Source of the DNA: a virus
Lineage: Duplodnaviria; Caudoviricetes
Virus record (IMG/VR): IMGVR_UViG_3300038393_002209
Span: 372-64,371 of that record
DNA: 64,000 nt
Direction: 5' to 3' (one strand)
This document shows, piece by piece, positions 2,921-59,516 of the stretch. Every line of letters starts with the position of its first letter. Within the stretch, counting starts at the first letter, position 1. The position numbers and the translations under genes were made by a program. A model generated the notes under the pieces. It did not search any database. It was not told where the DNA came from and saw only the letters and a program-made list of their open reading frames with translations.

Positions 2921-2933
2921 GGAAACCGTTACC
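2921..2933. promoter_or_regulatory. 13-bp dispersed palindrome, copy 1
   Basis: GGAAACCGTTACC; abuts terminator. Confidence 0.8.
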
Positions 2934-2958
2934 ACCCCGGGGCGACCCGGGGTGTTTT
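2933..2958 (+). terminator. intrinsic terminator
   Basis: CACCCCGGG-GCGA-CCCGGGGTG followed by TTTT. Confidence 0.8.
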
Positions 2959-3045
2959 CGTTTCCATAAGCGTCCGCTGATCCCAGCGGTGGGTACGGAA
3001 TCCCCGTCTCCAACGGGGAATCTTCCCGGGCGGTCCCTGCGGGGA

Positions 3046-3091
3046 CCATTCAGATCCGGCCCGGCGTCGGGCCTCCATTCAGATCCGGCCC
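3046..3091. repeat. 17-bp direct repeat x2
   Basis: CCATTCAGATCCGGCCC at 3046-3062 and 3075-3091. Confidence 0.85.
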
Positions 3092-3768: not shown

Positions 3769-3796
3769 TTGACGACCAGTGCAGTGGAGCTATACT
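3769..3796 (+). promoter_or_regulatory. sigma70-type promoter TTGACG-16-TATACT
   Basis: Consensus hexamers, followed by palindrome GGCCGGAC-G-GTCCGGCC at 3806-3822. Confidence 0.75.
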
Positions 3797-3856: not shown

Positions 3857-4903
3857 ATGCGGACGATCGAGACGGGAACCCTGACGGTCAAGGTGGACGG
3901 CCGGCCCTACGCGACCTGCAACACGGCCCATCGTGCGGCCCTCGCCTACCTCCAAGCCAATGACCCGGATGGCACGTTGGTCATCCGCATGGTGGAGACG
4001 AACGGCGGATGGGGGTTCATGCTGATCGACTCCGCCCCGGCCGGCCCGGCCATCGTTATCGATCCGGCCGACGACGACGCCATCCCGGACGTCAAGCGGC
4101 CCGCGACCGTTGACGAGACGCTGGCCGCGGAGGCGGAGGCGGAGGCCAAGCGAGCCAAGGGGCGGGAACGCTACGCGGCCCGCAAGCGGTCGGCCCTCGC
4201 CCGGATCGTGGCCACCGTCAAGGCGGAGTCCGAGACGGCCGTTGCCGTGGCCGAACCCGCCCGGACCGTTCCCCGCGGTTGGGACGTCATCGAACCCGAG
4301 CCGACCGACGACGACGGGCCGGCCGACGCCAAGATGAGCGGCAACGCGGTCCGCATCCTCCGGACGTACTACGCGGCCACTCCGGAGGAGATGGCGGAGG
4401 GGATGACGTGGTACAGGACCGCCGCCCAGGAGATTCGGCGGAGGCTCGTGCCGCTCGGTGTCACGTTCCGCCAAGCGTGCGGCATCGTGGCCGCTCTCTC
4501 GCCGCAGACGCCGTGGGCACGGAACATCCTGTACGCGGAACGGTGCTGCCGTGGGGAGAACACTCCAGCCACGGGGGACCGCCGTAGGCTGGCCGAGTCC
4601 ATCCGGGATGGGGCCGATCCGGTCAAGGTCGTCAAGGGACTGAAGACGGGCGAGTTCCTGGCGTGCCTCCTCGACCAGAGGACCGACCGCGTTTGCATCG
4701 ACGGCCATGCATATAGCATATGGGTCGGGCGTCGGATCGAGACGTCCAAGGTCCCCACCCTCCGGGCCTCGGACCACGCCATCATCCGGGAGGACTACCA
4801 ATCGGCCGCCTACGCGGCCGGGGTCCGGCCCCACCAGATGCAGGCGATCACATGGCTGGCGTGGCGGCGCCTGCACGCGGTCCGTCGGGACCGGCCCCAG
4901 TGA
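3857..4903 (+). CDS. phage protein with C-terminal HhH/DNA-glycosylase-like fold domain (DUF7178-like)
   Basis: GMTWY...GIVAALSPQTPWARN...VCIDGH...QMQAITW motif set; GGAG RBS supports ATG 3857. Confidence 0.5.
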   Translation: MRTIETGTLTVKVDGRPYATCNTAHRAALAYLQANDPDGTLVIRMVETNGGWGFMLIDSAPAGPAIVIDPADDDAIPDVKRPATVDETLAAEAEAEAKRAKGRERYAARKRSALARIVATVKAESETAVAVAEPARTVPRGWDVIEPEPTDDDGPADAKMSGNAVRILRTYYAATPEEMAEGMTWYRTAAQEIRRRLVPLGVTFRQACGIVAALSPQTPWARNILYAERCCRGENTPATGDRRRLAESIRDGADPVKVVKGLKTGEFLACLLDQRTDRVCIDGHAYSIWVGRRIETSKVPTLRASDHAIIREDYQSAAYAAGVRPHQMQAITWLAWRRLHAVRRDRPQ

Positions 4904-5026: not shown

Positions 5027-6034
5027 ATGCGAACCGTCCTGCGATCCCGCGATGAGGTCTGCCACGTCTGGGCGAGCCAGAGCCAGAGCCACGGCCGGAA
5101 CAGCCAAGGGTCCCTGTCGTTCGACGGGCCGGACCTCATCAGCTACTCGACCCGCGTCGCGTCCATCCGGACGGACGTCAACGGCCGGACCGTCGTGCTG
5201 ACGAGCGGCCATCGCTACTCCGTCACGACGTCGGGCCAACTGACCGCCGCATGGCGTGCCACTCGGCATCTCGACCATCTGACCGTGCCCACGCTGGACG
5301 GGTCCCGTTACGACTCCGCCGAAGGCATCCGGGAACGCTGGTCGGCCGACATCAGCGACGCCGCGGAGTCCGTCCGCACGGCCCGGAACAAGGTGAGCCG
5401 GGCCAAGCGATGGCGTGCCTACCTCGCCCGGGTCGACTCCGCCAACGTCTTCTGTGTCCGGTTCGGCGTGCCCACGTTCGCGGTCCCCGAGACGGACGCC
5501 GACATGGCCGAGTCCATCGCGGCTATGGAGTCCCGCGAGTACGCTCTGGCCGAGCAAGCCAGGGAGCGGCGTGTTCAGTACGTGGCCCAGTTGGAGGCGG
5601 AGGCTCTGGCCGTGGCGGAGGCATGGAAGGCCGGCCGCTCCCATCAGCGGCCCGTGGGCCTCCGCCAAGCCTACATGCGTCTCACTCCGGACGGCCGGAC
5701 CGTGCAGACGTCCCAAGGGGCGGATGTCCCCGCGGCCCACGTCCGTCGGCTCGTCCCATTCGTGCTCAACCTCGTCCGCTCCGGCGAGGGATGGACCGCC
5801 GACGACAACCGGCCCGTGCGGTTCGGCCCGTTCACCCTCCGGTCGGTCGACTGGGATGGGACGGTTCGCGTCGGCTGTCACGAGTTCAGCCGGGATGAGA
5901 TCGAGCGGTTCGCGGTCGTGCTCAACCAGAGCGGCCCCATCGGTGCGGAGGCCGGCCCGGTCGAGTCCGGCCCGGCCGATCCGGACCGCATGCCATCAGG
6001 GATCACCGATGTCTTCGAGGCACTGGGCGTCTGA
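5027..6034 (+). CDS. conserved-looking hypothetical phage early protein
   Basis: 335-aa ORF (HVWASQSQSHGRN...YSVTTS...QTSQGADVP...VRVGCHEF); own promoter, RBS and downstream hairpin. Confidence 0.7.
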   Translation: MRTVLRSRDEVCHVWASQSQSHGRNSQGSLSFDGPDLISYSTRVASIRTDVNGRTVVLTSGHRYSVTTSGQLTAAWRATRHLDHLTVPTLDGSRYDSAEGIRERWSADISDAAESVRTARNKVSRAKRWRAYLARVDSANVFCVRFGVPTFAVPETDADMAESIAAMESREYALAEQARERRVQYVAQLEAEALAVAEAWKAGRSHQRPVGLRQAYMRLTPDGRTVQTSQGADVPAAHVRRLVPFVLNLVRSGEGWTADDNRPVRFGPFTLRSVDWDGTVRVGCHEFSRDEIERFAVVLNQSGPIGAEAGPVESGPADPDRMPSGITDVFEALGV

Positions 6035-6171: not shown

Positions 6172-6184
6172 GGTAACGGTTTCC
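6172..6184. promoter_or_regulatory. 13-bp dispersed palindrome, copy 2
   Basis: GGTAACGGTTTCC; 6168-6186 is a perfect 19-bp inverted repeat of 2919-2937. Confidence 0.8.
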
Positions 6185-6449: not shown

Positions 6450-6794
6450 ATGAAGACCGCGACCCTCAAGACCTCGGACGGCTCACTGACGCCGGAGTGG
6501 ACCCAGGCCCATGAGGCCCAGTGGAAGCCCACGCACGCCGCCCTGGGCTCCCGGGTCTTCATGGAATACCTGCCCCCTACGGGCGTCGATCCGGTCGAGG
6601 GCTGGCGATTCGAGGCCAGGGTGCTCTGGCACGGCCTGGAGTTCCCGATCGGGGGGTTGGTCCACGCGGGGCGGCTCGTCCTGATGCAGCCCGTGGTCGC
6701 CCCCCTGAACTCCGTCGTGGAGATGCAGGAGGGGGGCCGGCGGATGAAGCGGCCCGACGACGTGGTCATCACCGTGCCTGTCCTGGAGGACTGA
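6450..6794 (+). CDS. hypothetical protein
   Basis: 114-aa ORF with genome-typical codons. Confidence 0.65.
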   Translation: MKTATLKTSDGSLTPEWTQAHEAQWKPTHAALGSRVFMEYLPPTGVDPVEGWRFEARVLWHGLEFPIGGLVHAGRLVLMQPVVAPLNSVVEMQEGGRRMKRPDDVVITVPVLED

Positions 6795-7015: not shown

Positions 7016-7028
7016 AGGGAGGACTGAC

Positions 7029-9224: not shown

Positions 9225-9641
9225 ATGCCCGAGCACCTGACCCCCATCGACGCCCTGGAGCCGATCTCGCCGGCCGACCTCGGGACCACCGAGGACTACG
9301 CCCGGGAGTTCGCCGAGGACCCGCCCGGCCCCGGGATCGCGGGGGACGCCGACAACCCGTTCTCCAAGATCCTGAACGCGGCCCTGGAGCGGCTCAAGGC
9401 CGGTAACGGTTTCCAGGCCCCCGCCCCGGCCGTCGAGGTCGCCTCGACCCTGGAGCAGCTCACCCAGGCCCTGGAGGGGGCCGCCTCCGGCGGCGGAGCC
9501 CCCAGGGCGATCACCGTGTCCCCGGCCGCCGCGGCGGCCCTCCTGGTCCGGCTCCGCGTCGCCGAGGCGGCGGGCCGGGACGCCGAGCACGAGCGAAGGA
9601 TCTCGATCCTGGCCCTGGGGAAGATCCTCGGGGTCGAGTGA
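9225..9641 (+). CDS. hypothetical protein
   Basis: 138-aa ORF immediately before TerL. Confidence 0.65.
   Translation: MPEHLTPIDALEPISPADLGTTEDYAREFAEDPPGPGIAGDADNPFSKILNAALERLKAGNGFQAPAPAVEVASTLEQLTQALEGAASGGGAPRAITVSPAAAAALLVRLRVAEAAGRDAEHERRISILALGKILGVE
9402..9414. promoter_or_regulatory. 13-bp dispersed palindrome, copy 3 (intragenic)
   Basis: GGTAACGGTTTCC. Confidence 0.75.
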
Positions 9642-14244: not shown

Positions 14245-15423
14245 ATGGCCTACAAGCGTGGCTTCCTCCAGGACGTCGACTTCTCGGGCGAGCACGTCGA
14301 GGACATCAGCGCCCTGACGCGCGAGGTGTTCTTCAACCAGCATCCCCTGCTCTCGCGGTTCCCGCACGTCGATGGCGACGCCATCGAGTTCAAGATCCTG
14401 ACCTACGCCTTCCGGCCCCGCACCTACACCCTCACCGCCGCCATCGCGGACGGCGTCGCCACCTCGGCGAGCCTGAACGACGTCAGCCCCCTGGTCGAGG
14501 GCGACGTGCTCTGGTTCCCCTCGGGCGAGCGGGTCGAGGTGACGGCGGTCAACGTGACCAACGCCTCCACCGGGGCCGGCACGGTCACGATCGTCCGCGG
14601 CGTCAGCGGCAGCACGGCCGCCGCCCAGGCCAGCGCCGGCACCGTCCGCCTGGTCGGCAACAGCCAGCGGGGTAACGAGGTCGCCCAGTCCTCGGCCCGC
14701 ACCGCCCGCACCGCGAACGTCCAGTGGCACCAGCGGTCCCGCCGCCGGGTGTCGATGGGCGGCGAGACGGCCGCGGTCAAGAACGTGGTCCTGCCGGGCG
14801 GCTACACCGACCCGTTCGACCTGGAGAAGGAGGTCAAGCTCGTCGAGATGCTCGACGACGCCGAGTCCTCGATGTACTTCGGGATGGGCGAGGCGCCCAC
14901 GGCGGGCGGCAACCGCCGCAAGCAGAAGGGCCTGCGGCAGCTCGTCGGCCACCTGACCGACGCCTCCGACATCACCGACGAGGCGGCCTACACCCCCGAC
15001 AGCCTGATCCGCGACCTCTTCCAGCCCATCATCGACAACGGCGGCGAGCCCGGCGTGGTCCTGATGTCGACCGGCTGGGTCTCGGGCCTGCACAAGTGGG
15101 GCTACCTCAAGACCGGGTCGGTCCCCCTCGGCAGCACCCAGAACCTGGGCATCCGCATCAGCGGCTACGTCCTGCCGTTCTCCAACCGGGACATCGTCTT
15201 CATCCCGGCCCCGCTCCTGAACGCCCCGGACAACTCCCACTCGGCGATCTGCCTGACCACCGAGGAGGTGGCGATCTCCGACCTGGAGAACGAGAGCTGG
15301 CACCCGGTCGCCCGGACCGGCGACGTCCGCGAGGGCGAGTGGATCTACGACGGCTGCATCCGGCTGGAGAACCCCGAGCACCACTCGATGGTCGAGGGGA
15401 TCACCGGCTTCTCGGCCTCCTGA
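14245..15423 (+). CDS. major capsid protein (DUF5309/SU10-like, with inserted beta-domain)
   Basis: Position after scaffold; EKEVKLVEMLDDAESSMYFG...RKQKGLRQL and C-terminal IRLENPEHH pattern. Confidence 0.8.
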   Translation: MAYKRGFLQDVDFSGEHVEDISALTREVFFNQHPLLSRFPHVDGDAIEFKILTYAFRPRTYTLTAAIADGVATSASLNDVSPLVEGDVLWFPSGERVEVTAVNVTNASTGAGTVTIVRGVSGSTAAAQASAGTVRLVGNSQRGNEVAQSSARTARTANVQWHQRSRRRVSMGGETAAVKNVVLPGGYTDPFDLEKEVKLVEMLDDAESSMYFGMGEAPTAGGNRRKQKGLRQLVGHLTDASDITDEAAYTPDSLIRDLFQPIIDNGGEPGVVLMSTGWVSGLHKWGYLKTGSVPLGSTQNLGIRISGYVLPFSNRDIVFIPAPLLNAPDNSHSAICLTTEEVAISDLENESWHPVARTGDVREGEWIYDGCIRLENPEHHSMVEGITGFSAS

Positions 15424-15449
15424 TCCGACATCCCGGCTGAAATCGTCGC

Positions 15450-15482
15450 GGGCCTGGGTGGTAACGCTTACCGCCCAGGCCC
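15450..15482 (+). terminator. stem-loop after MCP containing 13-bp palindrome copy 4 (15460-15472)
   Basis: GGGCCTGGGTGGTAA-CGC-TTACCGCCCAGGCCC. Confidence 0.75.
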
Positions 15483-15513
15483 GTCGCCTAGACCGACCGA
15501 CCCCCAGACCGGA

Positions 15514-16808: not shown

Positions 16809-17780
16809 ATGAGCGACCGACCCTCCGTCGCGGCCCTGGCCCGGATGCACGGCATCCCCTGGCACCAGGCCAACCGCCGCTACGACGAACTCACGGCCGC
16901 CGGGTCCCCCGAGCCCGCCCCCGCGGTCGCCGGGTCCGCCCCGGTGGACTCGATCGTCGAGGCCGTGCTGGCCCGCCTGGGACTGGGGACCCGGGCGGAG
17001 GCCCCGGCCTCCAGGGTCGAGCCGAGGGGCCTGACGGTGCGGCACGAGGGGCGGCCCGCCCGCGTGGGGGTCGTGACCGATACCCACTATCCCTACCAGG
17101 ACGAGCGGGCGATCTCGGTGGCGATGCAGATCCTGGCCGACTTCAAGCCCGACCTCGTCGTCCACCTGGGGGACGTGTTCGACTTCTACATGATCTCACG
17201 CTTCGCAAAGGACCCGAAGCGGGGCAAGGCGGTCCGCGAGGAGATCGACTCGGCGAAGCCGCTCTGGAGTGCCCTCGACGCCCTCGGGTGCGACGTGGCG
17301 GTGATCGAGGGCAACCACGACCACCGCTTCGACCTGATGCTGAACTCGACCGGCGGCATGTCCGGCCTGGTCTCGGTCCGGGACCTGACCGGGTGCCCGG
17401 AGCGGTTCTGGTGGCTGGCCAACCAGTCCCACCTCCTGGTCGGCCCGATGGCCTTCCTGCACGGCGACGTCCGGGGGACCAATGGGGGCAAGCACGCCGC
17501 CCGGACCCTGATGTCCAAGCTCCAGATCAACTTCGTCTGCGGCCACTTCCACCGCGAGGACCGGGTCGGCCTGGCCGACTACCACGGCGTCCCCCACCAG
17601 GGGGTCGTGGTCCCCTGCCTGTCCCGGGTCGAGGAAGCCTACGAGTACAACCGGGTCCCCGACTCGGTCAACGGCCTGGCCACCGTCGAGATCGACCACG
17701 ACGAGAACCTCGCGGAGGTCCGGACCCACGTCATCGACCGGGGCCGCTGCCGGGCGTTCGGCAAGACCTACCGGGCCTGA
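16809..17780 (+). CDS. calcineurin-like metallophosphoesterase
   Basis: DTH, HLGDVFD, GNHD, HGD, GHFHR motifs. Confidence 0.9.
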   Translation: MSDRPSVAALARMHGIPWHQANRRYDELTAAGSPEPAPAVAGSAPVDSIVEAVLARLGLGTRAEAPASRVEPRGLTVRHEGRPARVGVVTDTHYPYQDERAISVAMQILADFKPDLVVHLGDVFDFYMISRFAKDPKRGKAVREEIDSAKPLWSALDALGCDVAVIEGNHDHRFDLMLNSTGGMSGLVSVRDLTGCPERFWWLANQSHLLVGPMAFLHGDVRGTNGGKHAARTLMSKLQINFVCGHFHREDRVGLADYHGVPHQGVVVPCLSRVEEAYEYNRVPDSVNGLATVEIDHDENLAEVRTHVIDRGRCRAFGKTYRA

Positions 17781-17785: not shown

Positions 17786-17798
17786 GGTAACGGTTTCC
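17786..17798. promoter_or_regulatory. 13-bp dispersed palindrome, copy 5 (intergenic)
   Basis: GGTAACGGTTTCC. Confidence 0.8.
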
Positions 17799-22310: not shown

Positions 22311-22316
22311 CCCGCG

Positions 22317-22345
22317 GGGGACCCGGTAACGATTACCGGGTCCCC
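22317..22345. terminator. perfect hairpin between convergent genes containing 13-bp palindrome copy 6 (22325-22337)
   Basis: GGGGACCCGGTAA-CGA-TTACCGGGTCCCC. Confidence 0.8.
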
Positions 22346-42156: not shown

Positions 42157-42198
42157 AACCGGCCCGGCCCCCCATAGGATTGCCCAGTCGCTTTGGCG

Positions 42199-42231
42199 GC
42201 CGGATTCCTAGCCGGATTCCTAGCCGGATTC
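42199..42231. repeat. 12-bp tandem repeat (x2.7), putative integrase arm sites
   Basis: GCCGGATTCCTA x2 plus GCCGGATTC. Confidence 0.75.
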
Positions 42232-42345
42232 GCCGCGTGGCGGGTCCGGTTTCCGGCTTCCTGGAGCAAGGGGGCCTCGCCCCGGAACGTCCGGAACCCC
42301 AGACGCAAACCGATTTCCTGTCTGGATTTATGGGCTCGTGGCATG

Positions 42346-42420
42346 GAGAGTCGAACTCACATGGGGGTAGCCCCCCGGAGGATTTTAAGTCCTCTGCGTA
42401 TCCCGTTCCGCCACGTCGGC
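42346..42420 (-). tRNA. tRNA-Leu(UAA) lacking the 3' acceptor strand (attP core candidate or pseudo-tRNA)
   Basis: GCCGACG acceptor 5' strand, D arm TGGCGGAACGGGATACGC, GAGGA-CTTAAAA-TCCTC anticodon arm, long variable arm, GTGAG-TTCGACT-CTC; sequence then diverges with no CGTCGGC partner. Confidence 0.8.
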
Positions 42421-42477
42421 CACGGCCTTGAATCCTAGGGAATTTGAGGGGATGGGGGTTGGGATCGGGCGACGATA

Positions 42478-42497
42478 GCCGGATTCCTAGCCGGATT
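42478..42497. repeat. second cluster of the 12-bp repeat (x1.7)
   Basis: GCCGGATTCCTA GCCGGATT on the other side of the tRNA fragment. Confidence 0.75.
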
Positions 42498-42528
42498 GGA
42501 CCGGGAAGAGGCCCCGCGGAGGCGGGGC

Positions 42529-43883: not shown

Positions 43884-44219
43884 ATGGGGCGACGGGAGGA
43901 TCGTCGGGGGCCGGGCCTGTTCCTCGTGGGCTCGGACGGGGCGAGGACGCACCTCGGACCCCGGCCGATCGCGGTGCACGTCGATGAAGTGCCCCCGACG
44001 GCGGGCACTCCGCCCTGGACGACGGTGGTCCGGGTCTGGCGGACGTGCGACCTGGGCTCAGGCGGGTGCGGCCTCTGCCCCCTGTCGGGCTGCAAGGCCG
44101 TGCACCACGCCTCGGGGCTCTCGACCTGTCACATCCGGGGGATCGGGCACCTGACCGACGAGGAGGCGGTCACGGTCTCCCGGGACCCCGAGGTCACTTC
44201 GCTGCCTTCCGCCGGCTGA
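43884..44219 (+). CDS. small Cys/His-rich hypothetical protein
   Basis: CDLGSGGCGLCPLSGCKAVHH..STCH; GGAGG RBS. Confidence 0.55.
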   Translation: MGRREDRRGPGLFLVGSDGARTHLGPRPIAVHVDEVPPTAGTPPWTTVVRVWRTCDLGSGGCGLCPLSGCKAVHHASGLSTCHIRGIGHLTDEEAVTVSRDPEVTSLPSAG

Positions 44220-44694
44220 CGCCCGCGAGCCCCGCGGTCCCGACCGGGCCTGGTGCCGCCGCGGGTGCCGGCGGCACGTCCACCTTGCGGGTCTCCGAGG
44301 GGACGGGGACGAACCCGCCCGGGCTCGGGAGTTCGCGGTCCTCGGGGACGCCGAGCACCCGCTTGAGGGCGTACTCCTCCCCCATCATGGCGGCGGCCGA
44401 GAGCAGACGCTCCTGGATGGGGGTGAGGGGCGGCCGGGCGGCCGACTTGTCCCGCAAGGGCGGCGGGTAGTCCTGGTCGTCGTCCACCAGCCAGTCCAGC
44501 GACACCGCCCGGTCGGGCAGGCCGGCGGCCAGGGCGTCGGCTAGCGGCTTCAGGTACTCGATCGAGACCAGGCGGAACCGCTCGGCCACGATGTCGGCGG
44601 CCCGGTTCGAGCCGATGTTGGCGGCCCGCCCGAGCTGGGCCGGCTTCCACTGCTTCTCCGCCAGGAAGGCGTTGAGCTTCTCCACCGTCGTCAT
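44194..44694 (-). CDS. CI-like XRE HTH repressor
   Basis: KLNAFLAEKQWKPAQLGRAANIG...LKPLADAL...VSLDWL; near integrase and divergent from replication genes. Confidence 0.7.
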   Translation of the reverse strand: MTTVEKLNAFLAEKQWKPAQLGRAANIGSNRAADIVAERFRLVSIEYLKPLADALAAGLPDRAVSLDWLVDDDQDYPPPLRDKSAARPPLTPIQERLLSAAAMMGEEYALKRVLGVPEDRELPSPGGFVPVPSETRKVDVPPAPAAAPGPVGTAGLAGVSRRKAAK

Positions 44695-44991: not shown

Positions 44992-45843
44992 ATGTCCCAA
45001 GAGACGCAGTTCGCGGACGTCTTCGCGGCGTTGGCCCAGGAGTTCGACCAGGGGGAGGTCAAGCAGCGTCAGGGGCAGCGGGGGACGATGCTGTCCTACA
45101 TCACCGCCCGGACGGCCATGAACCGGCTGGACAACGTCGTCGGCCCGGAGAACTGGGAGGACGACTACGAGGTGATGCGGGACAACTCGATCAAGTGCAA
45201 GCTGACCCTCAAGCTGGTCGACCCGGCCACCAAGGAGTGGGTGTCCGTCACCAAGGCCGGCATCGGGGTCACGGCCTCCAGCGTGGGCGAGGACGCCGAG
45301 AAGGGCGGCGAGTCGGACGCCTTCAAGCGGGCGGCGGCCAAGTTCGGCGTGGCCCGCTACCTCTACCGCGACGGCGTGCCCGACTTCGTCCGCGATGCCA
45401 ACGGCGGCCAGGAACCCCAGGCCCCTCCGGCCCAGGCGCCACGCGGCGGCGGTAACGGCGGGGGCGGCTACCGCAACGGCAACGGGGGCGGTAACGGCTA
45501 CCAGGGCGGCGGGAACGGCGGGGGCCGGCCGCAGGGCAATGGCGGCGGCAATGGCGGCGGCCAGGGCGGAGGCCGGGACTTCGGGCCGCCCAAGACGGCC
45601 AAGCACCTCTGGGCTCGGGCCAAGGCCGAGGAGGAGAAGCTCGGCCCCGACGGCAAGGGGGAGCTGATCGAGTTCCTCGTCGGCTGGACCGAGAACGCCA
45701 TCGGCACCAAGAAGATCTACGACCTCCCGGACAACGCCATCCCGGACGCCTTCGAGGCCCTCATGGGCAAGGTCGCGTCGATGCGGGGCGTGCCGTCCGG
45801 CGGGGGCGGCGAGCAGTGGGAAGGGGACCGCGGGGGATACTGA
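44992..45843 (+). CDS. Rad52/Rad22-family single-strand annealing protein (Sak-like)
   Basis: LSYITARTAMNRLDNVVGPENW...EKGGESDAFKRAAAKFGVARYLY; Gly/Asn-rich linker. Confidence 0.9.
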   Translation: MSQETQFADVFAALAQEFDQGEVKQRQGQRGTMLSYITARTAMNRLDNVVGPENWEDDYEVMRDNSIKCKLTLKLVDPATKEWVSVTKAGIGVTASSVGEDAEKGGESDAFKRAAAKFGVARYLYRDGVPDFVRDANGGQEPQAPPAQAPRGGGNGGGGYRNGNGGGNGYQGGGNGGGRPQGNGGGNGGGQGGGRDFGPPKTAKHLWARAKAEEEKLGPDGKGELIEFLVGWTENAIGTKKIYDLPDNAIPDAFEALMGKVASMRGVPSGGGGEQWEGDRGGY

Positions 45844-45901
45844 GCCCCCGGCCGACCGGCCCGAGCCGGCCGGGGCACCGGAGCCGCCGTGGTCCCCCGA
45901 C

Positions 45902-46216
45902 CCGGCGGCCCGGAACCTCCGGGCAGAGCTGCTGAAGCTCCTCGAAGAGATCGCCCGCCTCCAGAACCCCCTGTCCAGGGCCAGGAAGATCGACGGCAAG
46001 CAGATCGGCCAGGCCCTCTCGGGGGTCGCCCACCTCGTCAAGCAGGCCGGCGGGCCGGAGATCCACTCGGTCTCGCTGTGCGACGACGTCGCCCTCCTGA
46101 CGCCCTACCTCGAAGAGGCCCGGGCGATGAAGGCCAGGCTCATGGGGTGCTCCCTGGAGCCCGGACCCGACGGCCCATCCGACGCCACGCGGGCCTTGCA
46201 GTCCTCCCTGTTCTGA
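45902..46216 (+). CDS. hypothetical protein, start codon not identified
   Basis: Open frame NLRAELLKLLEEIARLQ...SSLF* with typical codons but no ATG/GTG near the 5' end. Confidence 0.4.
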   Translation, partial: PAARNLRAELLKLLEEIARLQNPLSRARKIDGKQIGQALSGVAHLVKQAGGPEIHSVSLCDDVALLTPYLEEARAMKARLMGCSLEPGPDGPSDATRALQSSLF

Positions 46217-47816: not shown

Positions 47817-47844
47817 TTGATTACCACCAGTACACTGGTATAAT
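47817..47844 (+). promoter_or_regulatory. promoter TTGATT-16-TATAAT with operator ACCAGTACACTGGT
   Basis: Operator at 47826-47839 in the spacer; T-tract upstream. Confidence 0.8.
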
Positions 47845-47873: not shown

Positions 47874-48992
47874 ATGGAAACGATTACCGGGAGCGACGCG
47901 ATGGCCAGCAGCGAACTGAAGGTCAAGATCAAGGCGGCCCTGGCCGAGTGCGAGGCCGAGGGCAAGGCCGTCCCCAGCGTCCGCGAGATGGCCGAGAAGG
48001 TCGGCGGCTCGGCCGGTGCGGTCGCCGCCCTGATGAAGGAGATCCGCGAGGGCGTCCCGACCCTCCTCAAGGTCGAGGAGATCAAGCGGGACCCGCGGTG
48101 CCAGCTCCGGTGCCGCCAGGACGACGAGACGGTCCAGAGCTACCTGGCCGTCATCCAGGACGGCGGCGAGCTGCCGCCCCCGGTCGTGTTCTTCGACGGC
48201 CGGACCCTCACCTACTGGCTGGCCGACGGGTTCCACCGGCTGGCCGCCATGATCCTGGCCGGCCTGACCGAGGTCACGGTCCTGGTCAAGGAGGGGGACC
48301 TCGACGACGCGATCCTCTACGCCGCCTCCTGCAACCTCCAGAACGGCCTCCGCGTCACCAACGCGGACAAGAAGAAGGCCGTCATGGTCCTGCTGGCGAA
48401 CTCCCGCTGGAAGAAGCTCTCCAACCGCAAGATCGCCGAGGCGTGCGGCGTCACCCACCCGTTCGTGGCCAAGGTCAAGGACGAGCTGTCCGGCGTCGTC
48501 AAGGACAAGCCCGCCCCGGCCCCCAAGCCGGCCCCGGACGCCTCGGACGACGAGGGCGAGGACGAGGAGGAGGGCGACGAGGGCGACGAGGGCGACGACG
48601 AGGCCCCGGCCCCGAAGCCCGGCAAGGGCAAGGGCGACGACTCGGGCGACGGCGAGATCCCCGAGGAGGACATGACCTTCGAGGAGTGGTGCGAGTCCAT
48701 CCCAGCCTACTCCCTGGTCTCCGGAGACGCCCGCAAGGCGGTCGAGCGGGAGCTGCGGCTCTACTGGACCTTCGCCAAGAGCCTGCCCTGCGAGCAGGCG
48801 GCCAAGCACGCCCGGACCCTGCTCAAGGCCAACGCCAACCCGGGCGACGTCGGCCCGATGTCGGGCCTGATGCGGCACCTCGTCGCCATCCCGCACCCGC
48901 GGACCTGGAAGGTCTGCCGCGACTGCAACGGCTCCGGCAAGGGGTCCAAGGGGACCTGCTCGAAGTGCTGCGGCAACGGGTTCACGGGCTGA
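47874..48992 (+). CDS. ParB-like protein with extra N-terminal HTH and C-terminal Zn finger
   Basis: PSVREMAEKVGGS HTH; YWLADGFHRLAA ParB-N motif; SNRKIAEACGVTHPFV HTH; acidic linker; CRDCNGSG...CSKCCG. Confidence 0.8.
   Translation: METITGSDAMASSELKVKIKAALAECEAEGKAVPSVREMAEKVGGSAGAVAALMKEIREGVPTLLKVEEIKRDPRCQLRCRQDDETVQSYLAVIQDGGELPPPVVFFDGRTLTYWLADGFHRLAAMILAGLTEVTVLVKEGDLDDAILYAASCNLQNGLRVTNADKKKAVMVLLANSRWKKLSNRKIAEACGVTHPFVAKVKDELSGVVKDKPAPAPKPAPDASDDEGEDEEEGDEGDEGDDEAPAPKPGKGKGDDSGDGEIPEEDMTFEEWCESIPAYSLVSGDARKAVERELRLYWTFAKSLPCEQAAKHARTLLKANANPGDVGPMSGLMRHLVAIPHPRTWKVCRDCNGSGKGSKGTCSKCCGNGFTG
47876..47888. promoter_or_regulatory. 13-bp dispersed palindrome, copy 12 (5' end of ParB-like gene)
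   Basis: GGAAACGATTACC. Confidence 0.8.
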
Positions 48993-49011: not shown

Positions 49012-49024
49012 GGTAACGGTTTCC
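49012..49024. promoter_or_regulatory. 13-bp dispersed palindrome, copy 13 (intergenic)
   Basis: GGTAACGGTTTCC. Confidence 0.8.
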
Positions 49025-49043: not shown

Positions 49044-50921
49044 ATGCAGCCGAGCCTCTTCGACATGGCCGACCTCGACCACTCCCTGCTGGGCGGGGAC
49101 GTGACCGACCTGGACTTCACCCCGGGGGCGTCGTCCCCCGGGGCCTTCCTGGCCCCCGAGCGTTGGCTGGCCGAGTCGTCCCTGCCCCTGACGCCCCACC
49201 CGCACCAGACCGCGACCTTCCTCAAGACCTGGAAGGCCATCCTGGACGACGGCGGCGAGGCCGGGCTGGTCGTCAAGCCGACCGGCACCGGCAAGTCGGT
49301 CGAGATCGCGTTGCACTGCCGATACGCCTGGGAGGCCCTGGGCTGGCGGACCCTGGTGTGGGTCCACCGTGACAAGCTGGTCAAGCAGTTGATGGGGACC
49401 CTGGAGTTCATGGGGGTCCACTGCGTCCGCGAGCAGGGGAGCCACTGCGGCCGGCGGGCCATCGAAGACTCGTCCACCGGCATGTTCGCCCGGCCCGTCA
49501 TGGCCGTCGTCGCCTCCGCCCAGACCCTGCACCCCGGCCGGATCGCCCGGTGGGACCGGGGGATGTTCGGCCTGGCGGTCCGCGACGAAGCCCACCACAT
49601 CACCGCCAAGGGGGACCGACGCATCCTGGCCCACTTCCGGGCCGGCTCCGGCGGGGCTCGCCTGCTGGGCTACACCGCGACCCCCGAGCGGGCGGACGGC
49701 TCGAACCTCGGCGAGGTCTTCCCGGCCGTCTTCGACCAGATGACCCTGCCCGAGGCGATCGGGATCGGAGCCCTGGTCAGGCCCATGTTCGTGAAGAGTG
49801 ACGTCAAGATCGACCTCCGCGGGATCTCGACCCGGGGCGGCGACTACTCCGACGAGGAGCTGGCCGACCGGGTCTCGATGCGGCTCGGGCCGATCGTCAA
49901 GTCGGTCGTGAAGGAGGCCGGCGACCGCAAGACGGTCCTGTTCCTGCCCGGCGTGAAGTGCTCGAAGATGGCGGCCGAGGCCATCAACCGCCACGTCCTG
50001 GGGGACGCCTGGGTCCCGGGCGAGAACGACGTCGCCAAGGCCGTCTGGGGGGACCGGCCCGGCCTGGACGACATCCTCGACGACTTCGACGCCGGCAAAT
50101 TCCAATACATCTGCAACTGTGACCTACTGACCGAGGGCTGGGACTGCCGCTCGGTGCGGTGCGTCGCCCTCTGCCGGGCCACCTGCTCCGCGGCCCTCCT
50201 CGCCCAGATGATCGGGCGGGGCACCCGCCGCGACGACGCCAACGGCAAGGACCATTGCCTCTACATCGACTTCGCGTGGCAGACGGACAGGAACCGGAAC
50301 AAGCTGGTCTCCCCCTATGGACTGGTCGTGCCCGACGGCACGGCGACCAACCTCCTGGAGGAGATGGAGCGGCAGGTCCAGGCGATGGTCGAGGCCGGCT
50401 CCGGCCCGGTCGACCCCGAGGAGGCCCTCCGCAAGGCCGAGGAGGCGGTCCGCAAGGCGGAGGAGCTGGAGAAGGCCAAGGCCGCGAGGGCGGCCAAGGC
50501 GGCGGCCGAGGCCGAGGAGGAGACCGGGGTCGTCGTGACCAAGGCGGACGCCAAGATCAAGTTCGATGCGTTCGACCCCCTGGCCGGGGCCGTGATCGGC
50601 AAGCACAACGGGGAGAAGGTCCGCAAGGATCTGAATGCGTTCAAGACGATGGTCTCGGGCAAGCAGGCCGAGTACCTCGTGAAGCTCGGGATGCCCGAGC
50701 GTGAGGTGAACCTCCTGACCCGGGACGAGGCGTCGAAGTGCATCGACACCCTCCAGGTCCGGAAGAAGCACGGGCTGGCGACGTACAAGCAGGTCAAGCT
50801 GCTGATGCGGCATGGCATGCCACGCACCGAGGCGATGGGGCTCAGGATTTCCGAGGCTTCCGAGGCCATCGACGCTCTCATGAGCAAGGTGTCCCGGTAC
50901 GCGGCAAAGGCCGCCAGGTGA
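49044..50921 (+). CDS. superfamily II DEAD/DEAH helicase
   Basis: KPTGTGKS, DEAHH, GYTATPER, LTEGWD, QMIGRGTR. Confidence 0.92.
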   Translation: MQPSLFDMADLDHSLLGGDVTDLDFTPGASSPGAFLAPERWLAESSLPLTPHPHQTATFLKTWKAILDDGGEAGLVVKPTGTGKSVEIALHCRYAWEALGWRTLVWVHRDKLVKQLMGTLEFMGVHCVREQGSHCGRRAIEDSSTGMFARPVMAVVASAQTLHPGRIARWDRGMFGLAVRDEAHHITAKGDRRILAHFRAGSGGARLLGYTATPERADGSNLGEVFPAVFDQMTLPEAIGIGALVRPMFVKSDVKIDLRGISTRGGDYSDEELADRVSMRLGPIVKSVVKEAGDRKTVLFLPGVKCSKMAAEAINRHVLGDAWVPGENDVAKAVWGDRPGLDDILDDFDAGKFQYICNCDLLTEGWDCRSVRCVALCRATCSAALLAQMIGRGTRRDDANGKDHCLYIDFAWQTDRNRNKLVSPYGLVVPDGTATNLLEEMERQVQAMVEAGSGPVDPEEALRKAEEAVRKAEELEKAKAARAAKAAAEAEEETGVVVTKADAKIKFDAFDPLAGAVIGKHNGEKVRKDLNAFKTMVSGKQAEYLVKLGMPEREVNLLTRDEASKCIDTLQVRKKHGLATYKQVKLLMRHGMPRTEAMGLRISEASEAIDALMSKVSRYAAKAAR

Positions 50922-52636: not shown

Positions 52637-52660
52637 CTTACCAGTCCACTGGTGTATCAT
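52633..52660 (+). promoter_or_regulatory. promoter TTGACT-16-TATCAT with operator ACCAGTCCACTGGT
   Basis: Operator at 52640-52653 in the spacer. Confidence 0.8.
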
Positions 52661-53750: not shown

Positions 53751-53790
53751 TCCCCTTCCATCCACACTCCAGCATTCGAGGACGTTGCTC

Positions 53791-54951
53791 ATGTGCGGGA
53801 ATGCCCAGGTCGTCCGGGAGGGCGACTTCATCCAGACGTCGAGGGGCGAGCGGTTCTGGCCGCTCGACGCCCGGCCGTATGAGATTTACATCGAGGACAT
53901 CGCCCACGCCCTGGCGGCCATCAACCGCTACACCGGCCACACCAAGGTCCCCTACAACGTCGCCCAGCACTCGGTCCTGGTCGCCCGCCTGGTCGAGCAC
54001 CTCGGCCCGATGATCGCCCTCAAGGCACTCCTGCACGACGCCACCGAGGCGTACCTCAACGACATCAGCCGGCCCCTCAAGGTTCTCGACGAGTACCTCC
54101 ACTTCCGCGAGGCCGAGGCCCGCCTGGAGGCGGTGATCGCCGTGACCTTCGGCCTGTCCGACGACGCCGCCGCGGACCGGATCATCAAGGACGCCGACCG
54201 GGCGTTGCTCTGGTGGGAGGCCAAGGCCCTCATGCGTCGCCCCGACGGCACGCTGCCGGACTGGTGGCACAAGTGGGAGCGGTACGCGGCCCTGTTCCCG
54301 CACGCCGGGACCGACCTCCGCAACCTCGAAGCCTGGGACTCCGAGGACGCCGAGGCCGTCTTCCTCAAGATGTACGACCGCCTGCGGCGTGAGGCCGGGT
54401 TCGTCGAGCCCCACGAGCAGGCCGTGGCCGCGCCCCCCGCGGAAACCGTTACCACCCCCGAGCCCGACGCCCTGCCAGACTTCGTCGCCTCCAGCGGGGC
54501 GGTCCGGTCGGCCGACGTCTCGGACCTCGACTTCGCCTCGATGCCCCTGGTGGGCCTCCTGGGCGTCCTCAAGGTGGCCGGGTGCGGTGGCATCAAGTAC
54601 GGCCGGTTCAACTACGCCAAGGGGTTCCCGGTCCACGAGACCCTGAACCACATGGCGGTCCACATGATCCGCTGGGCCTGCGGGGACCGCTCCGAGCCCC
54701 ACATGGAGAAGGTCGCCTGGGGTGCGATGGTGATCGCCCAGACCCAGGCCCTCCAGCCCGAGCTGGTCGCCCCGCACGTCCCCGGCCCCGGGTTCACGCT
54801 CACGCCCGAGCTGCTGGCCGAGATGGACCGCGGCAAGCCCGAGCGGGACGCGGCCCGCAAGCGGGGCGAGTTCGAGGCCCTCTTCCACTGGGAGGCGAAG
54901 GACATCCCGGCCGTGGCCGAGATCGTCGCGTCCCGCGGCGGGGCCTCGTGA
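53791..54951 (+). CDS. HD-domain (YfbR-like) nucleotidase fused to DUF5664-type dATP/dGTP diphosphohydrolase
   Basis: NRYTGH...VAQHSV...LLHDATEAY; then GIKYGRFNYAKG...HMIRW..GDRSEPHMEKVAW. Confidence 0.75.
   Translation: MCGNAQVVREGDFIQTSRGERFWPLDARPYEIYIEDIAHALAAINRYTGHTKVPYNVAQHSVLVARLVEHLGPMIALKALLHDATEAYLNDISRPLKVLDEYLHFREAEARLEAVIAVTFGLSDDAAADRIIKDADRALLWWEAKALMRRPDGTLPDWWHKWERYAALFPHAGTDLRNLEAWDSEDAEAVFLKMYDRLRREAGFVEPHEQAVAAPPAETVTTPEPDALPDFVASSGAVRSADVSDLDFASMPLVGLLGVLKVAGCGGIKYGRFNYAKGFPVHETLNHMAVHMIRWACGDRSEPHMEKVAWGAMVIAQTQALQPELVAPHVPGPGFTLTPELLAEMDRGKPERDAARKRGEFEALFHWEAKDIPAVAEIVASRGGAS
54441..54453. promoter_or_regulatory. 13-bp dispersed palindrome, copy 14 (intragenic linker)
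   Basis: GGAAACCGTTACC. Confidence 0.75.
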
Positions 54952-56193: not shown

Positions 56194-56258
56194 GCCGCCA
56201 CGCCGATCCGTCGTCACCGTCCCATCCACACGTCCACGATTTCGAGGTCGAGTCCGCG

Positions 56259-59200
56259 ATGAACCAGATCAGCAAGCGTCAGGGCATGGGGATCGAGCGT
56301 CACTTCTCCCTCTTCGGCGGGGCGATGCCCCGGGCCAGGCAGGTCCGGGCGGAGATCAAGGGGGACAGCGGCGTCCCCCTCTTCTCCCAGGAGGTCAACG
56401 TCCCCGAGACCTGGGGCGACGACGCCGCCAACATCGTCGCATCCAAGTATCTCTACGGGGACGCCTCGAAGGGCTTCGACCCCTGGAAGGGGGGACGGGA
56501 GACCTCGGCCTACCAGCTCGTCGATCGGGTCTCCGGCCAGGTCGCCCAGTGGGGGCTCGACGGCGGCTACTTCGCCTCGGAGGTCGAGGCGTTCACGTTC
56601 CAGGCCGAGCTGCGGGCCATCTGCCTCGGGCAGGTCGCCGCGTTCAACTCCCCGGTCTGGTTCAACGTCGGCCTGCACCGCAGCTACGGCGTCTCCACGC
56701 CCGGGACCGGGTTCCAGGCCCAACTCCACACCTGGGTCGAGGGCACCGACCAGAAGGAGTGGATCACCTTCCGGGTCCAGGACAACTACCAGAGCCCCCA
56801 GGGCTCGGCGTGCTTCATCCAGAGCCTGTCCGACGACATGGGCTCGATCATGGACCTCGCCCGCTCCGAGGCCATGCTGTTCAAGTTCGGCTCGGGCACC
56901 GGCACGGACCTCTCGACCCTCCGGTCCACCCGGGAGAAGCTCTCCGGCGGCGGCAAGCCCTCCGGCCCGGTGTCGTTCCTGGGCGTCTACGACTCGATCG
57001 CGGGCGTCATCAAGTCGGGCGGCAAGACCCGCCGGGCCGCCAAGATGAACACGCTCCGATGCCACCATCCCGACATCCTGGAGTTCATCCGGGCCAAGTC
57101 GGCCGAGGAGCGGAAGGCCCGGGCGTTGATCGCGGGCGGCTTCGACGGGTCCTGGAACGGGGAGGCATACGCCTCGGTCAAGTACCAGAACGTGAACCTG
57201 TCCGTGGGCGTCACGGATGAGTTCATGGACAAGGCCGCTGGCGGACTCCTCGCCTACCCGACCGTCGCGGTCACGACCGGGCAGAACGTCGAGTGGCTCG
57301 ATGCCCGCGAGGTGCTCAACGAGATCGCCCTCGGGACCTGGACCTGCGGGGACCCGGGCGTCCATTACGTCGACACCATGAACCGCTGGCACACCTGCCC
57401 GAACAGCGGTCCCATCAACACCTCGAACCCGTGCTCCGAGTACGTCTTCCTCGATGACTCGGCCTGCAACCTGGCCTCGATCAACCTGCTTAAGTTCCGC
57501 AGGGACGACGGCACGTTCGACGCCGAGGGCTTCCGCCACGCGGTCCGGGTGATGCTCACCGCCCAGGAGATCCTGGTCGGCGGCGTCAGCTACCCCACCG
57601 AGAAGATCGCCATCAACTCCGCCCGGTTCCGCCCCCTGGGCCTGGGCTACGCCAACCTCGGGGCCTACCTGATGGCCTCGGGCCTGCCCTACGACTCCGA
57701 CGAGGCCCGCGAGCTGGCGGCGGCGATCACGGCGCTGATGCACGCCGAGGCCCTCCTGCACTCCGCCCGGATGGCCGAGGTCACGGGTCCCTTCGACGGG
57801 TTCGCCGAGAACCGCGAGCCGATGATGGGCGTCGTCCGGCAGCATTTCGAGGCCGCGGTCGCCCTCACCCTCGGGGCGGTCCCGGGGACAGAGGCCGGAC
57901 GGCTCGCACGCCTGGCCTCGGACGTGATGAACGAGGCCAGGAGGCTCGGGGAGGTTCACGGCTACCGCAACGCCCAGGTCACGCTCATCGCCCCCACCGG
58001 CACGATCGCGTTCATGATGGGCTGCGACACCACCGGGATCGAGCCCGACTTCGCCCTGGTCAAGATCAAGACCCTGGCCGGCGGCGGGTCGATGACGATC
58101 GTCAACCAGACCGTCCAGGCGGCCCTCAAGCACCTCGGCTACGAGCCCAAGGACATCGACGACATCCTGGGATACATCTACAGCTTCGGCACAGTTGACG
58201 GGTGCGAACTCCTCAAGGATGAGCACCGCAGGATCTTCGACTGTGCCAACGACATCTCGATGGGTGGCCACATCCGCATGATGGCCGCGGTGCAACCCTT
58301 CCTCTCCGGGGCGATCTCCAAGACGGTCAACGCCCCGCACGACTGCACGCCGGCCACGATCGCCGCCGCCTACGTCCTGGGCTGGAGGCTCGGCCTCAAG
58401 GCCCTGGCGATCTACCGGGACGGCTCGAAGGAGTCCCAGCCGCTCAACGCCAAGACCAAGGGGGACGACGATGGCGATCGGGCTGATGATGAGGCTGGTC
58501 GTGATGGGGGCGACGGCGTTGCTCCCGCTCCTGGTGGACATGGGGATCTCCCGCAGGTCATCAAGGCGGGCGACTGGTACGTCCCAGGGGAGCCGGGCAT
58601 GCACCCCGCGATCCGGAAACTCGCCGACGACGACTGCGTCGCCATCCCCAGCGACGACCCGGACCTCGGTCAGATCGTCGTGAGGGGCGACCGGCTCCGG
58701 GCCTTGATCTGGACGCTCGGCCCCCATCGCCTGCCCGGCGAGGGCACGGTCGAGGCCCTGGGCCGCATCCTCAAGCCCTGGACCCCGGCCCAGCTCAAGA
58801 CGGCCGAGGCCGTGGCGGATCGGCTCCGGCCCGCCCGGGAACGCCTGCCCGAGACCCGGGACAGCGTGACCCACAAGTTCGAGGTCGGGCAGCACGAGGG
58901 GTACATCACCGCCGGCATGTACCCCGACGGCCGGCTCGGCGAGCTGTTCGTCGAGGTCTCCAAGGAAGGCTCCACGGTCGGCGGCCTGATGGACTGCCTG
59001 GCGACCATGATCTCGATCGGGCTCCAGTACGGGGTGCCCCTGGAGGCCCTCACCTCCAAGCTGAGGCACCAGAAGTTCGAGCCCTCTGGGTTCACCCGAA
59101 ACGACCAGATCCGAACGGCCACCAGCCTCGTGGACTACCTCGCGGCCTGGCTGGATCAGGAGTTCCCGGGCGGTTGCAGGCGTGCCTCCGCGGGCACGAG

Positions 59201-59516
59201 GTTCACGGTCCTGGACCTGGCCCGGGTGATCGCCTCGGCGGCCGGTAACGGATTCCACGAGTCGGCCGAGGGACTCGCCGCGGACGTCGCCGGGGCCTCG
59301 AAGGAGTCCCTCCTCAACAACCTGGCGTTCCTGGCCAAGGCCGCCCAGTCCGAGGCCGAGCACACGGACGACATGGGCTTCGGCATCGTGCCCGAGGCCA
59401 GGCGGGAGTCCACCGGGGACGCCTGCCCGTCCTGCGGCAACCTGATGGTCCGGGTCTCGAAGACCTGCTGGAGCTGCCCGCGGTGCGGTGACGGTGTGGG
59501 CGGGTGTGGCGGCTAA
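56259..59516 (+). CDS. nrdJ: class II (B12-dependent) ribonucleotide reductase with C-terminal TSCPD domain
   Basis: FNSPVWFN, SACFI, NPCSEY, IAPTGTI, ISKTVN; THKFEVG.HEGY TSCPD; CPSCG Zn ribbon. Confidence 0.95.
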   Translation: MNQISKRQGMGIERHFSLFGGAMPRARQVRAEIKGDSGVPLFSQEVNVPETWGDDAANIVASKYLYGDASKGFDPWKGGRETSAYQLVDRVSGQVAQWGLDGGYFASEVEAFTFQAELRAICLGQVAAFNSPVWFNVGLHRSYGVSTPGTGFQAQLHTWVEGTDQKEWITFRVQDNYQSPQGSACFIQSLSDDMGSIMDLARSEAMLFKFGSGTGTDLSTLRSTREKLSGGGKPSGPVSFLGVYDSIAGVIKSGGKTRRAAKMNTLRCHHPDILEFIRAKSAEERKARALIAGGFDGSWNGEAYASVKYQNVNLSVGVTDEFMDKAAGGLLAYPTVAVTTGQNVEWLDAREVLNEIALGTWTCGDPGVHYVDTMNRWHTCPNSGPINTSNPCSEYVFLDDSACNLASINLLKFRRDDGTFDAEGFRHAVRVMLTAQEILVGGVSYPTEKIAINSARFRPLGLGYANLGAYLMASGLPYDSDEARELAAAITALMHAEALLHSARMAEVTGPFDGFAENREPMMGVVRQHFEAAVALTLGAVPGTEAGRLARLASDVMNEARRLGEVHGYRNAQVTLIAPTGTIAFMMGCDTTGIEPDFALVKIKTLAGGGSMTIVNQTVQAALKHLGYEPKDIDDILGYIYSFGTVDGCELLKDEHRRIFDCANDISMGGHIRMMAAVQPFLSGAISKTVNAPHDCTPATIAAAYVLGWRLGLKALAIYRDGSKESQPLNAKTKGDDDGDRADDEAGRDGGDGVAPAPGGHGDLPQVIKAGDWYVPGEPGMHPAIRKLADDDCVAIPSDDPDLGQIVVRGDRLRALIWTLGPHRLPGEGTVEALGRILKPWTPAQLKTAEAVADRLRPARERLPETRDSVTHKFEVGQHEGYITAGMYPDGRLGELFVEVSKEGSTVGGLMDCLATMISIGLQYGVPLEALTSKLRHQKFEPSGFTRNDQIRTATSLVDYLAAWLDQEFPGGCRRASAGTRFTVLDLARVIASAAGNGFHESAEGLAADVAGASKESLLNNLAFLAKAAQSEAEHTDDMGFGIVPEARRESTGDACPSCGNLMVRVSKTCWSCPRCGDGVGGCGG

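Follow-up and report, generated by a model that had tools for sequence, protein, structure and literature searches.

Fourteen dispersed palindromes in a temperate phage genome and an orphan ParB-like protein as their probable reader

Described systems and the 14-site array

KorB has 12 OB operators on the IncP plasmid RK2, many of them at promoters, and in Bacillus subtilis the spo0J gene carries a site for its own protein. The replication origin of phage lambda (ori-lambda), with four iterons and an AT-rich tract, lies within the linker-coding part of gene O, and the stoperators of Cluster A mycobacteriophages (read by L5 gp71) are asymmetric, transcription-oriented sites bound by the immunity repressor. 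Here we describe a stretch of 64,000 nucleotides (hereafter the window), which comprises all but 371 bases of a virus record in IMG/VR (IMGVR_UViG_3300038393_002209; 64,371 bp) and in which one 13-bp palindrome recurs 14 times. Comparison across phages and prophages suggests that these sites are probably the cognate, parS- or OB-like DNA sites of an orphan ParB-like protein encoded by the phage itself. The closest published phage phenomenon is the 17-bp dyad repeat of the Cluster O mycobacteriophages, TGTTCGG-N3-CCGAACA, which is present in >30 copies and the function of which was left open by the authors (PMC4351075). As with the sites described here, this short repeat is dispersed over the phage genome, with many copies in intergenic regions and no tie to promoters (PMC4351075), whereas the copy number (>30 versus 14), the sequence, and the host differ. 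Cluster O phages also encode a protein with a ParB-like domain, Corndog gp90, to which the repeats were not linked in that paper (PMC4351075); in the present phage, the link to the ParB-like protein comes from covariation. A 2025 survey of the ParB-CTPase fold listed many orphan phage ParB-like proteins, leaving their DNA targets and roles open (PMC12704722).

The pattern GGWAANNNTTWCC (GGWAA-N3-TTWCC) has 14 exact matches in the window, at every position listed in the original prediction, compared with a mean of 0.02 and a largest value of 1 in 100 dinucleotide-preserving shuffles (~700-fold enrichment). Over the whole IMG/VR record, there are 14 sites versus 0 for a reversed control pattern, and when one mismatch is permitted the window contains 19 matches versus 1.09 expected. 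All 14 sites fit a 6-1-6 palindrome, GGWAAC-N-GTTWCC, with a weak extension to gGT...ACc, and the flanks past ~17 bp are unrelated among the sites. The two classes that had been proposed are real: eight sites are identical asymmetric 13-mers (GGTAACGGTTTCC; six + strand, two − strand), and the remaining six are near-symmetric GGTAAC/GGAAAC-N-NTTACC forms. The sites and one variant are as follows (strand given as none where the form is symmetric).

2921–2933, − strand: GGAAACCGTTACC, the asymmetric class reversed; intergenic, 27 nt past the stop of gene 2475–2894, abutting a terminator hairpin at 2933–2954
6172–6184, + strand: GGTAACGGTTTCC; intergenic, between 5027–6034 and the first gene of the structural region, 6450–6794
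9402–9414, + strand: GGTAACGGTTTCC; within a gene for a 138-aa protein (9225–9641), just upstream of the large terminase gene
15460–15472, no strand: GGTAACGCTTACC; tip of a hairpin with a 17-bp stem (~15448–15484, −36.4 kcal/mol), right after the major capsid gene 14245–15423
17786–17798, + strand: GGTAACGGTTTCC; intergenic, between 16809–17780 and 17818–19263
22325–22337, no strand: GGTAACGATTACC; tip of a hairpin (~22316–22346, −32.4 kcal/mol) after the tail gene 21402–22310
28459–28471, + strand: GGTAACGGTTTCC; within a structural gene for a 1084-aa protein (25637–28891), in frame as V-T-V-S
31810–31822, no strand: GGTAACTGTTACC, a perfect palindrome; in a hairpin (~31791–31833, −25.4 kcal/mol) at the convergent end of the late region
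35717–35729, no strand: GGTAACGCTTACC; 3′ end of a leftward operon; the AT-richest 80-bp window in the genome is 245 nt away
37222–37234, no strand: GGTAACGATTACC; overlapping the stop of an ArsR-like gene (37230–37514, − strand)
38955–38967, + strand: GGTAACGGTTTCC; intergenic, between 38104–38946 and 39002–39340
47876–47888, − strand: GGAAACGATTACC; overlapping codons 1–5 of the ParB-like gene, ~25–37 nt past the start expected from the promoter at 47817–47844
49012–49024, + strand: GGTAACGGTTTCC; 20 nt past the stop of the ParB-like gene and 20 nt ahead of the start of the helicase gene
54441–54453, − strand: GGAAACCGTTACC; within a gene for a deoxynucleoside monophosphate phosphatase-like protein (53785–54951), in frame as E-T-V-T
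41574–41586, no strand: GGAAACGGATACC; one-mismatch variant with a broken GTT core

Genes in the window were called from third-position GC content (GC3), and the main genes were named using Pfam and PHROGs. By these calls, ~11% of the genome is intergenic, compared with 8 of the 14 sites (binomial P ~4e-5). The placement of the three sites at 15460, 22325, and 31810 on strong hairpins, noted at the outset, was borne out by the folding energies, and the other eleven sites have no stable local fold. The overlap of one site with the 5′ end of the ParB-like gene and the presence of another just after its stop were likewise found as described. The asymmetric sites had also been thought to run with transcription; this orientation holds for six of the eight, which is not significant. 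Only site 47876 is promoter-proximal (≤50 nt from a sigma70-like promoter); it also borders the 80-bp window that ranks second in the genome for AT content. The one-mismatch variants at 41574 and 59244 are present as reported, together with one at 45490; the latter two also have a broken GTT core, and the variant at 41574 is probably weak or non-functional because its core is broken. The one-mismatch matches at 37593 and 47784 look like chance. A reading of the asymmetric site as a promoter for an extracytoplasmic function (ECF) sigma factor was dropped, as no conserved second element was found downstream.

The enrichment of the motif in phage relative to bacterial DNA was upheld by five bacterial genomes of 4–10 Mb: each has 4–17 matches (~1–2 per Mb). 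The motif was equal to or rarer than the control pattern in three of them, including that of the planctomycete Singulisphaera, and about two- to three-fold above the control in a Victivallales metagenome-assembled genome (MAG) and a Myxococcota MAG. In the Victivallales MAG (G012, 9.6 Mb, the genome of locus L272), 17 matches versus 6 for the control were found, many of them GGTAAC-N-GTTACC and lying on separate contigs; this excess may reflect several prophages with this type of ParB-like protein. As a separate observation, sites 2921 and 6172 form a 19-bp inverted repeat around a two-gene cassette (3857–4903, DUF7178, and 5027–6034), in which each gene has a sigma70-like promoter.

The ParB-like protein and the comparative evidence

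A blind scan of IMG/VR with the 14-mer GGTAACGGTTTCCA returned mostly single, chance-like matches, and four contigs had two to four sites. When the 86 window proteins were compared with these four multi-site contigs by tblastn, homologues were found for the ParB-like protein and the adjacent helicase only. The ParB-like homologues (36–46% identity) occurred in three of the four contigs, the fourth being a 23%-complete fragment. The original prediction had named four candidate binders; the comparison singles out the ParB-like protein, and for the other three, ArsR, CI, and XRE, no homologues were found in these other motif-bearing phages. Relatives of the ParB-like protein number at least 574 in IMG/VR and at least 521 in GTDB genomes, and come from Planctomycetota, Pseudomonadota, Cyanobacteriota, Chloroflexota, Myxococcota, and other phyla.

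To relate the palindrome to the ParB-like gene, 160 homologous loci were taken from IMG/VR and GTDB genomes. Every occurrence of the window motif among them falls where the conserved part of the ParB-like gene ends. Immediately past the codons of the helix-turn-helix (HTH), a 30-nt stretch contains 36 perfect 13-bp palindromes compared with ~1.8 expected from the overall locus rate; a perfect palindrome is present there in 41 of the 160 loci, and 5 of 6 pairs match in many more. AAC-N-GTT, with variable outer triplets, is the most frequent core, and other cores include GGGGAA-N-TTCCCC and GGCGGAAACCGCC. The embedded site is always in the same reading frame (x-T-V-x for the AAC.GTT class) and falls where the start of the interdomain linker is encoded. 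An independent scan with a 17-mer (GTGGWAACNGTTWCCAC) gave 77 stretches, 16 of which contained a ParB-like open reading frame (ORF), with the site inside that ORF in 13 of the 16.

The embedded sites covary with the protein. An embedded palindrome of the AAC.GTT type is present in 26 loci, and in these the second base of the half-site was compared with the residue that aligns to His195 in the recognition helix of the phage protein. G is paired with His in 7/7 loci, A with Gln in 5/6, C with Asp or Pro in 7/7, and T with Asn in 3/6. The mutual information is 1.55 bits, a value reached in 0 of 20,000 permutations, and the result stands after removal of duplicates. Specificity switches are also seen among close relatives: L216 (His, GGTAAC), L145 (Gln, GATAAC), and L146 (Asp, GCAAAC) belong to one well-supported clade, and L219 (Asp, GCGAAC) and L222 (Asn, GTTAAC) likewise share one. 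Shared ancestry therefore does not explain the covariation. Palindromes with other cores pair with other recognition helices. The helix of the window protein, V-T-H-P-F-V, predicts G at position 2, which matches GGWAAC, and two of the 14 sites (47876 and 49012) bracket its gene. Taken together, these comparisons indicate that the ParB-like protein is very likely the reader of the sites. Its gene and the surrounding elements are listed below.

47817–47844, + strand: sigma70-like promoter of the ParB-like/helicase unit (TTGATT-16-TATAAT), with the operator ACCAGTACACTGGT (47826–47839) in its spacer
47874–48992, + strand: orphan ParB-like protein (372 aa), the proposed reader
49044–50921, + strand: SF2 (ResIII/RadD-like) helicase, directly downstream of the ParB-like gene

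The protein consists of an extra N-terminal helical domain (residues ~5–59), a ParB-N fold (61–140), an HTH (143–206), an acidic disordered linker, a C-terminal helical domain, and a CxxC...CxxC zinc ribbon. His195 is the third residue of the V-[ST]-X-P-F-V recognition helix. Its match to Pfam ParB_N is weak (E 0.007) and that to phrog_1033 is stronger (E 2e-17), and the family profile matches Myxococcus ParB and Spo0J. An AlphaFold2 (AF2) model built from a 90-sequence alignment has pLDDT >90 over residues 10–210, and a Foldseek search of the Protein Data Bank (PDB) with this model gave ParB-CDP, Noc, and KorB as the best matches with a probability of 1.00 (6sdk, 7bnk, and 7nfu at the top); the KorB structure 8qa9 superimposes with an rmsd of 3.4 Å over 150 columns. 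The model thus predicts an N-terminal ParB/Srx fold, directly followed by an HTH that is predicted to read the palindrome. Gln77 and Arg79 of Box I are conserved, Asn154 is invariant, and Box II aligns with GERR as GFHR; nucleotide use by the protein is plausible. The C-terminal helical and zinc-ribbon domain (residues 262–372; 48657–48989) is without a Pfam match. With 3,488 cluster representatives at E ≤0.001, it is widespread and appears as a portable phage domain; among the best 150 hits, 57 carry a ParB-N/HTH head, and the rest carry other heads such as DUF3102.

The RK2 KorB operators, cited as a precedent in the original prediction, proved to be the closest functional analogy. In both proteins, an HTH follows an N domain of the ParB fold, both systems have about a dozen copies of a 13-bp palindrome over a mobile element of ~60 kb, and neither gene has a canonical ParA partner adjoining it. 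In contrast to KorB, only one of the 14 phage sites is promoter-proximal, although long-range action like that of KorB may occur; Box II reads GFHR instead of GERR; the C-terminal domain is an unrelated helical and zinc-ribbon module; and the gene partner is an SF2 helicase, with no KorA-like partner identified, in a phage and not a plasmid. With the ParB/Spo0J–parS and Noc–NBS systems, the protein shares the order of domains (N-terminal nucleotide-binding fold, HTH, linker, and small C-terminal domain, as also in KorB), the top fold matches, a palindromic site, and a variable number of sites. It differs from them in a site of 13 bp (6-1-6) versus 16 bp, in a non-canonical nucleotide pocket, and in its place in the early, lytic-phase region of a temperate phage. 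Unlike ParABS, the phage has no ParA ATPase: no CbiA or AAA_31 match was found in the complete genome, with positive controls, and the LG-R/K-GL peptide motif was not found in the N terminus of the ParB-like protein. The array also resembles the Cluster A stoperators, 13-bp sites that are likewise scattered and occupy mainly short gaps between genes, but the phage sites are palindromic and are probably not read by the repressor candidates, which sets them apart from that class. As to lambda O and ori-lambda, the family likewise places a site in the linker-coding part of the reader's own gene, with the gene for a replication partner coming next in the early region; the differences are that it is one palindrome, that the fold is that of ParB and not of O, and that in this phage the sites are dispersed and flank the gene.

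Proposed function and competing explanations

Here, we propose how the system may work based on these comparisons. A dimer of the ParB-like protein would read each GGWAAC-N-GTTWCC through its HTH, with His195 contacting the G at position 2 of the half-site, as the covariation suggests. By analogy with ParB, Noc, and KorB, which have the same domain order, the nucleotide-binding N domain would then probably close on the DNA at the sites and form local nucleoprotein complexes. The ParB-like gene appears to be co-transcribed with the SF2 helicase gene from a promoter that contains a separate repressor-type operator, and the protein probably acts in lytic growth. In most relatives, the system would run on one site in the protein's own gene; here the site has been multiplied to 14, mostly at gene or operon borders, and their spread would give genome-wide coverage. 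What the binding serves is best described by degrees. A KorB/Noc-like platform that marks or insulates the borders of transcription units, or that organizes the phage DNA, is the leading candidate at somewhat under an even chance; recruitment of the helicase or an origin function is a possibility of lower standing, and some other purpose is slightly less probable still. On a wider and distinctly tentative view, the ParB-fold protein and its SF2 helicase would form a widespread module of temperate phages in many phyla, loading at a palindrome in its own gene by a one-residue/one-base code, as a previously undescribed site-specific, nucleotide-gated device of phage DNA replication or genome organization, with the 14-site array setting transcription and replication boundaries in lytic growth. 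New here are the embedded-site rule, the one-residue recognition code, and the extreme 14-site array.

The promoter operator belongs to a second palindrome family, ACCAGT-N2-ACTGGT, with two exact and two one-mismatch copies in the window versus 0.27 expected. The four copies lie in the spacers of sigma70-like promoters (TTGAC-16/17-TATAAT), at the following positions.

3775–3788
37625–37638
47826–47839, in the promoter of the ParB-like gene
52640–52653

The lysogeny repressor probably uses them as operators to control early promoters, and the presence of such an operator in the promoter of the ParB-like gene suggests that the protein has an early lytic function.

Several observations weigh against the proposed explanation of the array. 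Most relatives carry a single embedded site with no other copy within 10 kb or on the whole contig, and a genome-wide role may thus be peculiar to this phage; the ParB-like gene of the window lacks the embedded site typical of the family and is flanked by sites instead. Box II reads GFHR where the canonical cytidine triphosphate (CTP) pocket has GERR, keeping one Arg in a sulfiredoxin-like manner (GCHR), so that clamp behavior is suggested by analogy only; the canonical pocket consists of Box I Q..R, Box II GERRxR, and Box III ENxxR. The protein tree is poorly resolved, and the site classes require 21 changes on it versus a shuffled mean of 25, a marginal and not significant difference. A search of IMG/VR by the capsid protein found no relative in which the positions of the sites could be compared. 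Moreover, four related partial contigs (G015–G018; 34–76% complete, 65% GC) carry two to four extended sites, and no ParB-like or helicase gene was found in the sequenced 34–76% of them. In this group, two extended sites lie exactly 135 nt apart in an ORF of 1,775 aa (L307:1117–6441, − strand; no Pfam match), with one or two more at a distance.

Only a few relatives have two to four sites, and the 14 of the window are the largest array found, an extreme expansion of the usual single site. The zinc ribbon does not predict a multi-site array, since the complete genome G021, which has it, contains one site; for three further relatives of the zinc-ribbon type, the contigs recovered span 1–2.6 kb, too little for an array to show.

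The strongest competitor retains the ParB-like protein as the reader and assigns it another purpose, as a replication initiator or helicase recruiter for which the embedded site is the origin and the 14 sites are points of helicase loading or initiation. The gene lies in a replication and recombination module (Erf, Prim-Pol, ParB-like, SF2 helicase, and RusA-like resolvase), and in 57 of 141 family loci the gene directly downstream is that of the helicase. The other neighbors across the family, upstream ones included, are heterogeneous genes typical of early regions (e.g., DUF669, SSB, RusA, NinG, CII, and DnaB). The position of the embedded site exactly at a domain boundary in the linker-coding region, the AT-rich window next to site 47876, and a C-terminal domain that is portable onto other DNA-binding heads, as expected for partner recruitment, would fit as well. 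On the other hand, 14 origins per 64 kb would be unusual, three sites are part of terminator-like hairpins that end late transcription units, the embedded site is a lone 13-bp palindrome without iterons, and the AT-rich tract by 47876 is simply the promoter too. We know of no replication initiator with a ParB fold. On balance, this explanation is a serious alternative, though less likely than not. Classical partition, which the original prediction had entertained, is unlikely, with no ParA in the complete genome, only 2 of 81 upstream neighbors in the family ParA-like, and an integrase present; classical operator control is unlikely because only one of the 14 sites is promoter-proximal.

Silencing of the prophage through stoperators or operators of the lysogeny repressor or a small regulator (CI-like, 44194–44694; ArsR-like, 37230–37514; XRE, 62099–62467), also raised originally, is very improbable. 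The sites are dispersed, mostly intergenic, and of 13 bp, as in Cluster A mycobacteriophages, and one overlaps the stop of the ArsR-like gene. Nevertheless, the separate ACCAGT-N2-ACTGGT motif in four promoter spacers is the better repressor operator and counts against this reading; all 14 sites lie outside the CI-proximal divergent region and are palindromic, with no significant orientation to transcription, and homologues of CI, ArsR, and XRE were not found in the other motif-bearing phages, whereas the motif accompanies the ParB-like gene in different phyla and shows covariation with the recognition helix of its product. An RNA-level role, in which terminator or stabilizer hairpins merely favor the motif at the top of the stem, deserves little more credence. 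It would account for the three sites on strong hairpins, two of which follow the capsid gene and a tail gene and the third of which closes the late region, but not for the 11 of 14 sites without a stable local fold. In addition, a 6-1-6 palindrome cannot close a hairpin alone, all eight asymmetric copies would contain a T:T mismatch, the embedded sites of the relatives lie within coding sequence without flanking stems, and a scan of the window against Rfam matched no family. It is similarly hard to credit that the motif serves a host factor, restriction-modification, or methylation, or that it is a small mobile repeat of the repetitive extragenic palindrome (REP) or miniature inverted-repeat transposable element (MITE) type, even though eight 13-mers are identical and two of them make the 19-bp inverted repeat around the cassette. 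The motif is at background frequency in bacterial genomes, is found alongside the ParB-like gene in phages and prophages whose phyla are unrelated, and has unrelated flanks beyond ~17 bp. Phages usually avoid restriction sites instead of accumulating them.

The preferred reading, that the 14 sites are bound by the ParB-like protein of the phage, has several implications. Orphan ParB-like proteins are common on phages and prophages, and here the target is readable straight from the sequence. The embedded site and the one-residue code open hundreds of protein–site pairs to testing and offer a candidate reader for unexplained dispersed dyad repeats such as those of the Cluster O mycobacteriophages, and the family provides a natural series of 1 to 14 sites for asking what arrays do.

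Genome context and further observations

CheckV rates the IMG/VR record, which carries a 127-bp direct terminal repeat, as 100% complete, and the window has an overall GC content of ~70%. The phage is temperate, with a tyrosine integrase (42496–43704) and the CI-like HTH protein (44194–44694, − strand). Its late region (~6.4–31.8 kb) contains the terminase, portal, SU10-type capsid protein, and tail genes, and its early region contains, in addition to the replication and recombination genes named above, nucleotide-metabolism genes and NrdJ. A search of the GenBank phage collection gave no DNA match to the window and no match to the terminase or CI protein; the ParB-like protein had matches in three metagenomic records only. 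The phage was present in eleven soil or rhizosphere metagenome runs and in no listed RNA run. Short contigs from four metagenome runs were identical to the window, leaving zero diversity from which to gauge selection on individual sites. Homologues suggest that the host is a planctomycete.

A tRNA-Leu-like fragment (42330–42425; region 42158–42738) adjoins the integrase gene and resembles an attP, with repeats of GCCGGATTCCTA on both sides. The depth of metagenome contigs rises about ten-fold in that bin, as expected if host tRNA genes match. Neither ARAGORN nor Rfam called the fragment, and a scan of genome contigs for a 68-nt exact copy of the tRNA-like attP piece found none. Just downstream of the Erf-like gene, ARAGORN called two overlapping, over-long tRNAs at 45823–45985 on the − strand (Gly-tcc, 89 nt; Ala-ggc, 91 nt), one of which covers the last 21 bases of that gene. 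These calls are probably false, as Rfam has no tRNA there.

The most AT-rich 80-bp stretch of the genome (35432–35511) has 34% GC versus 70% overall and lies within 34650–35660, where no gene could be called. Matches to sigma70-like promoters are absent from the 25-kb structural region (6400–31800), compared with 16 in the early regions, and a weak ECF-sigma-like gene is found at 31818–32483 on the − strand. Late transcription probably requires a phage factor.

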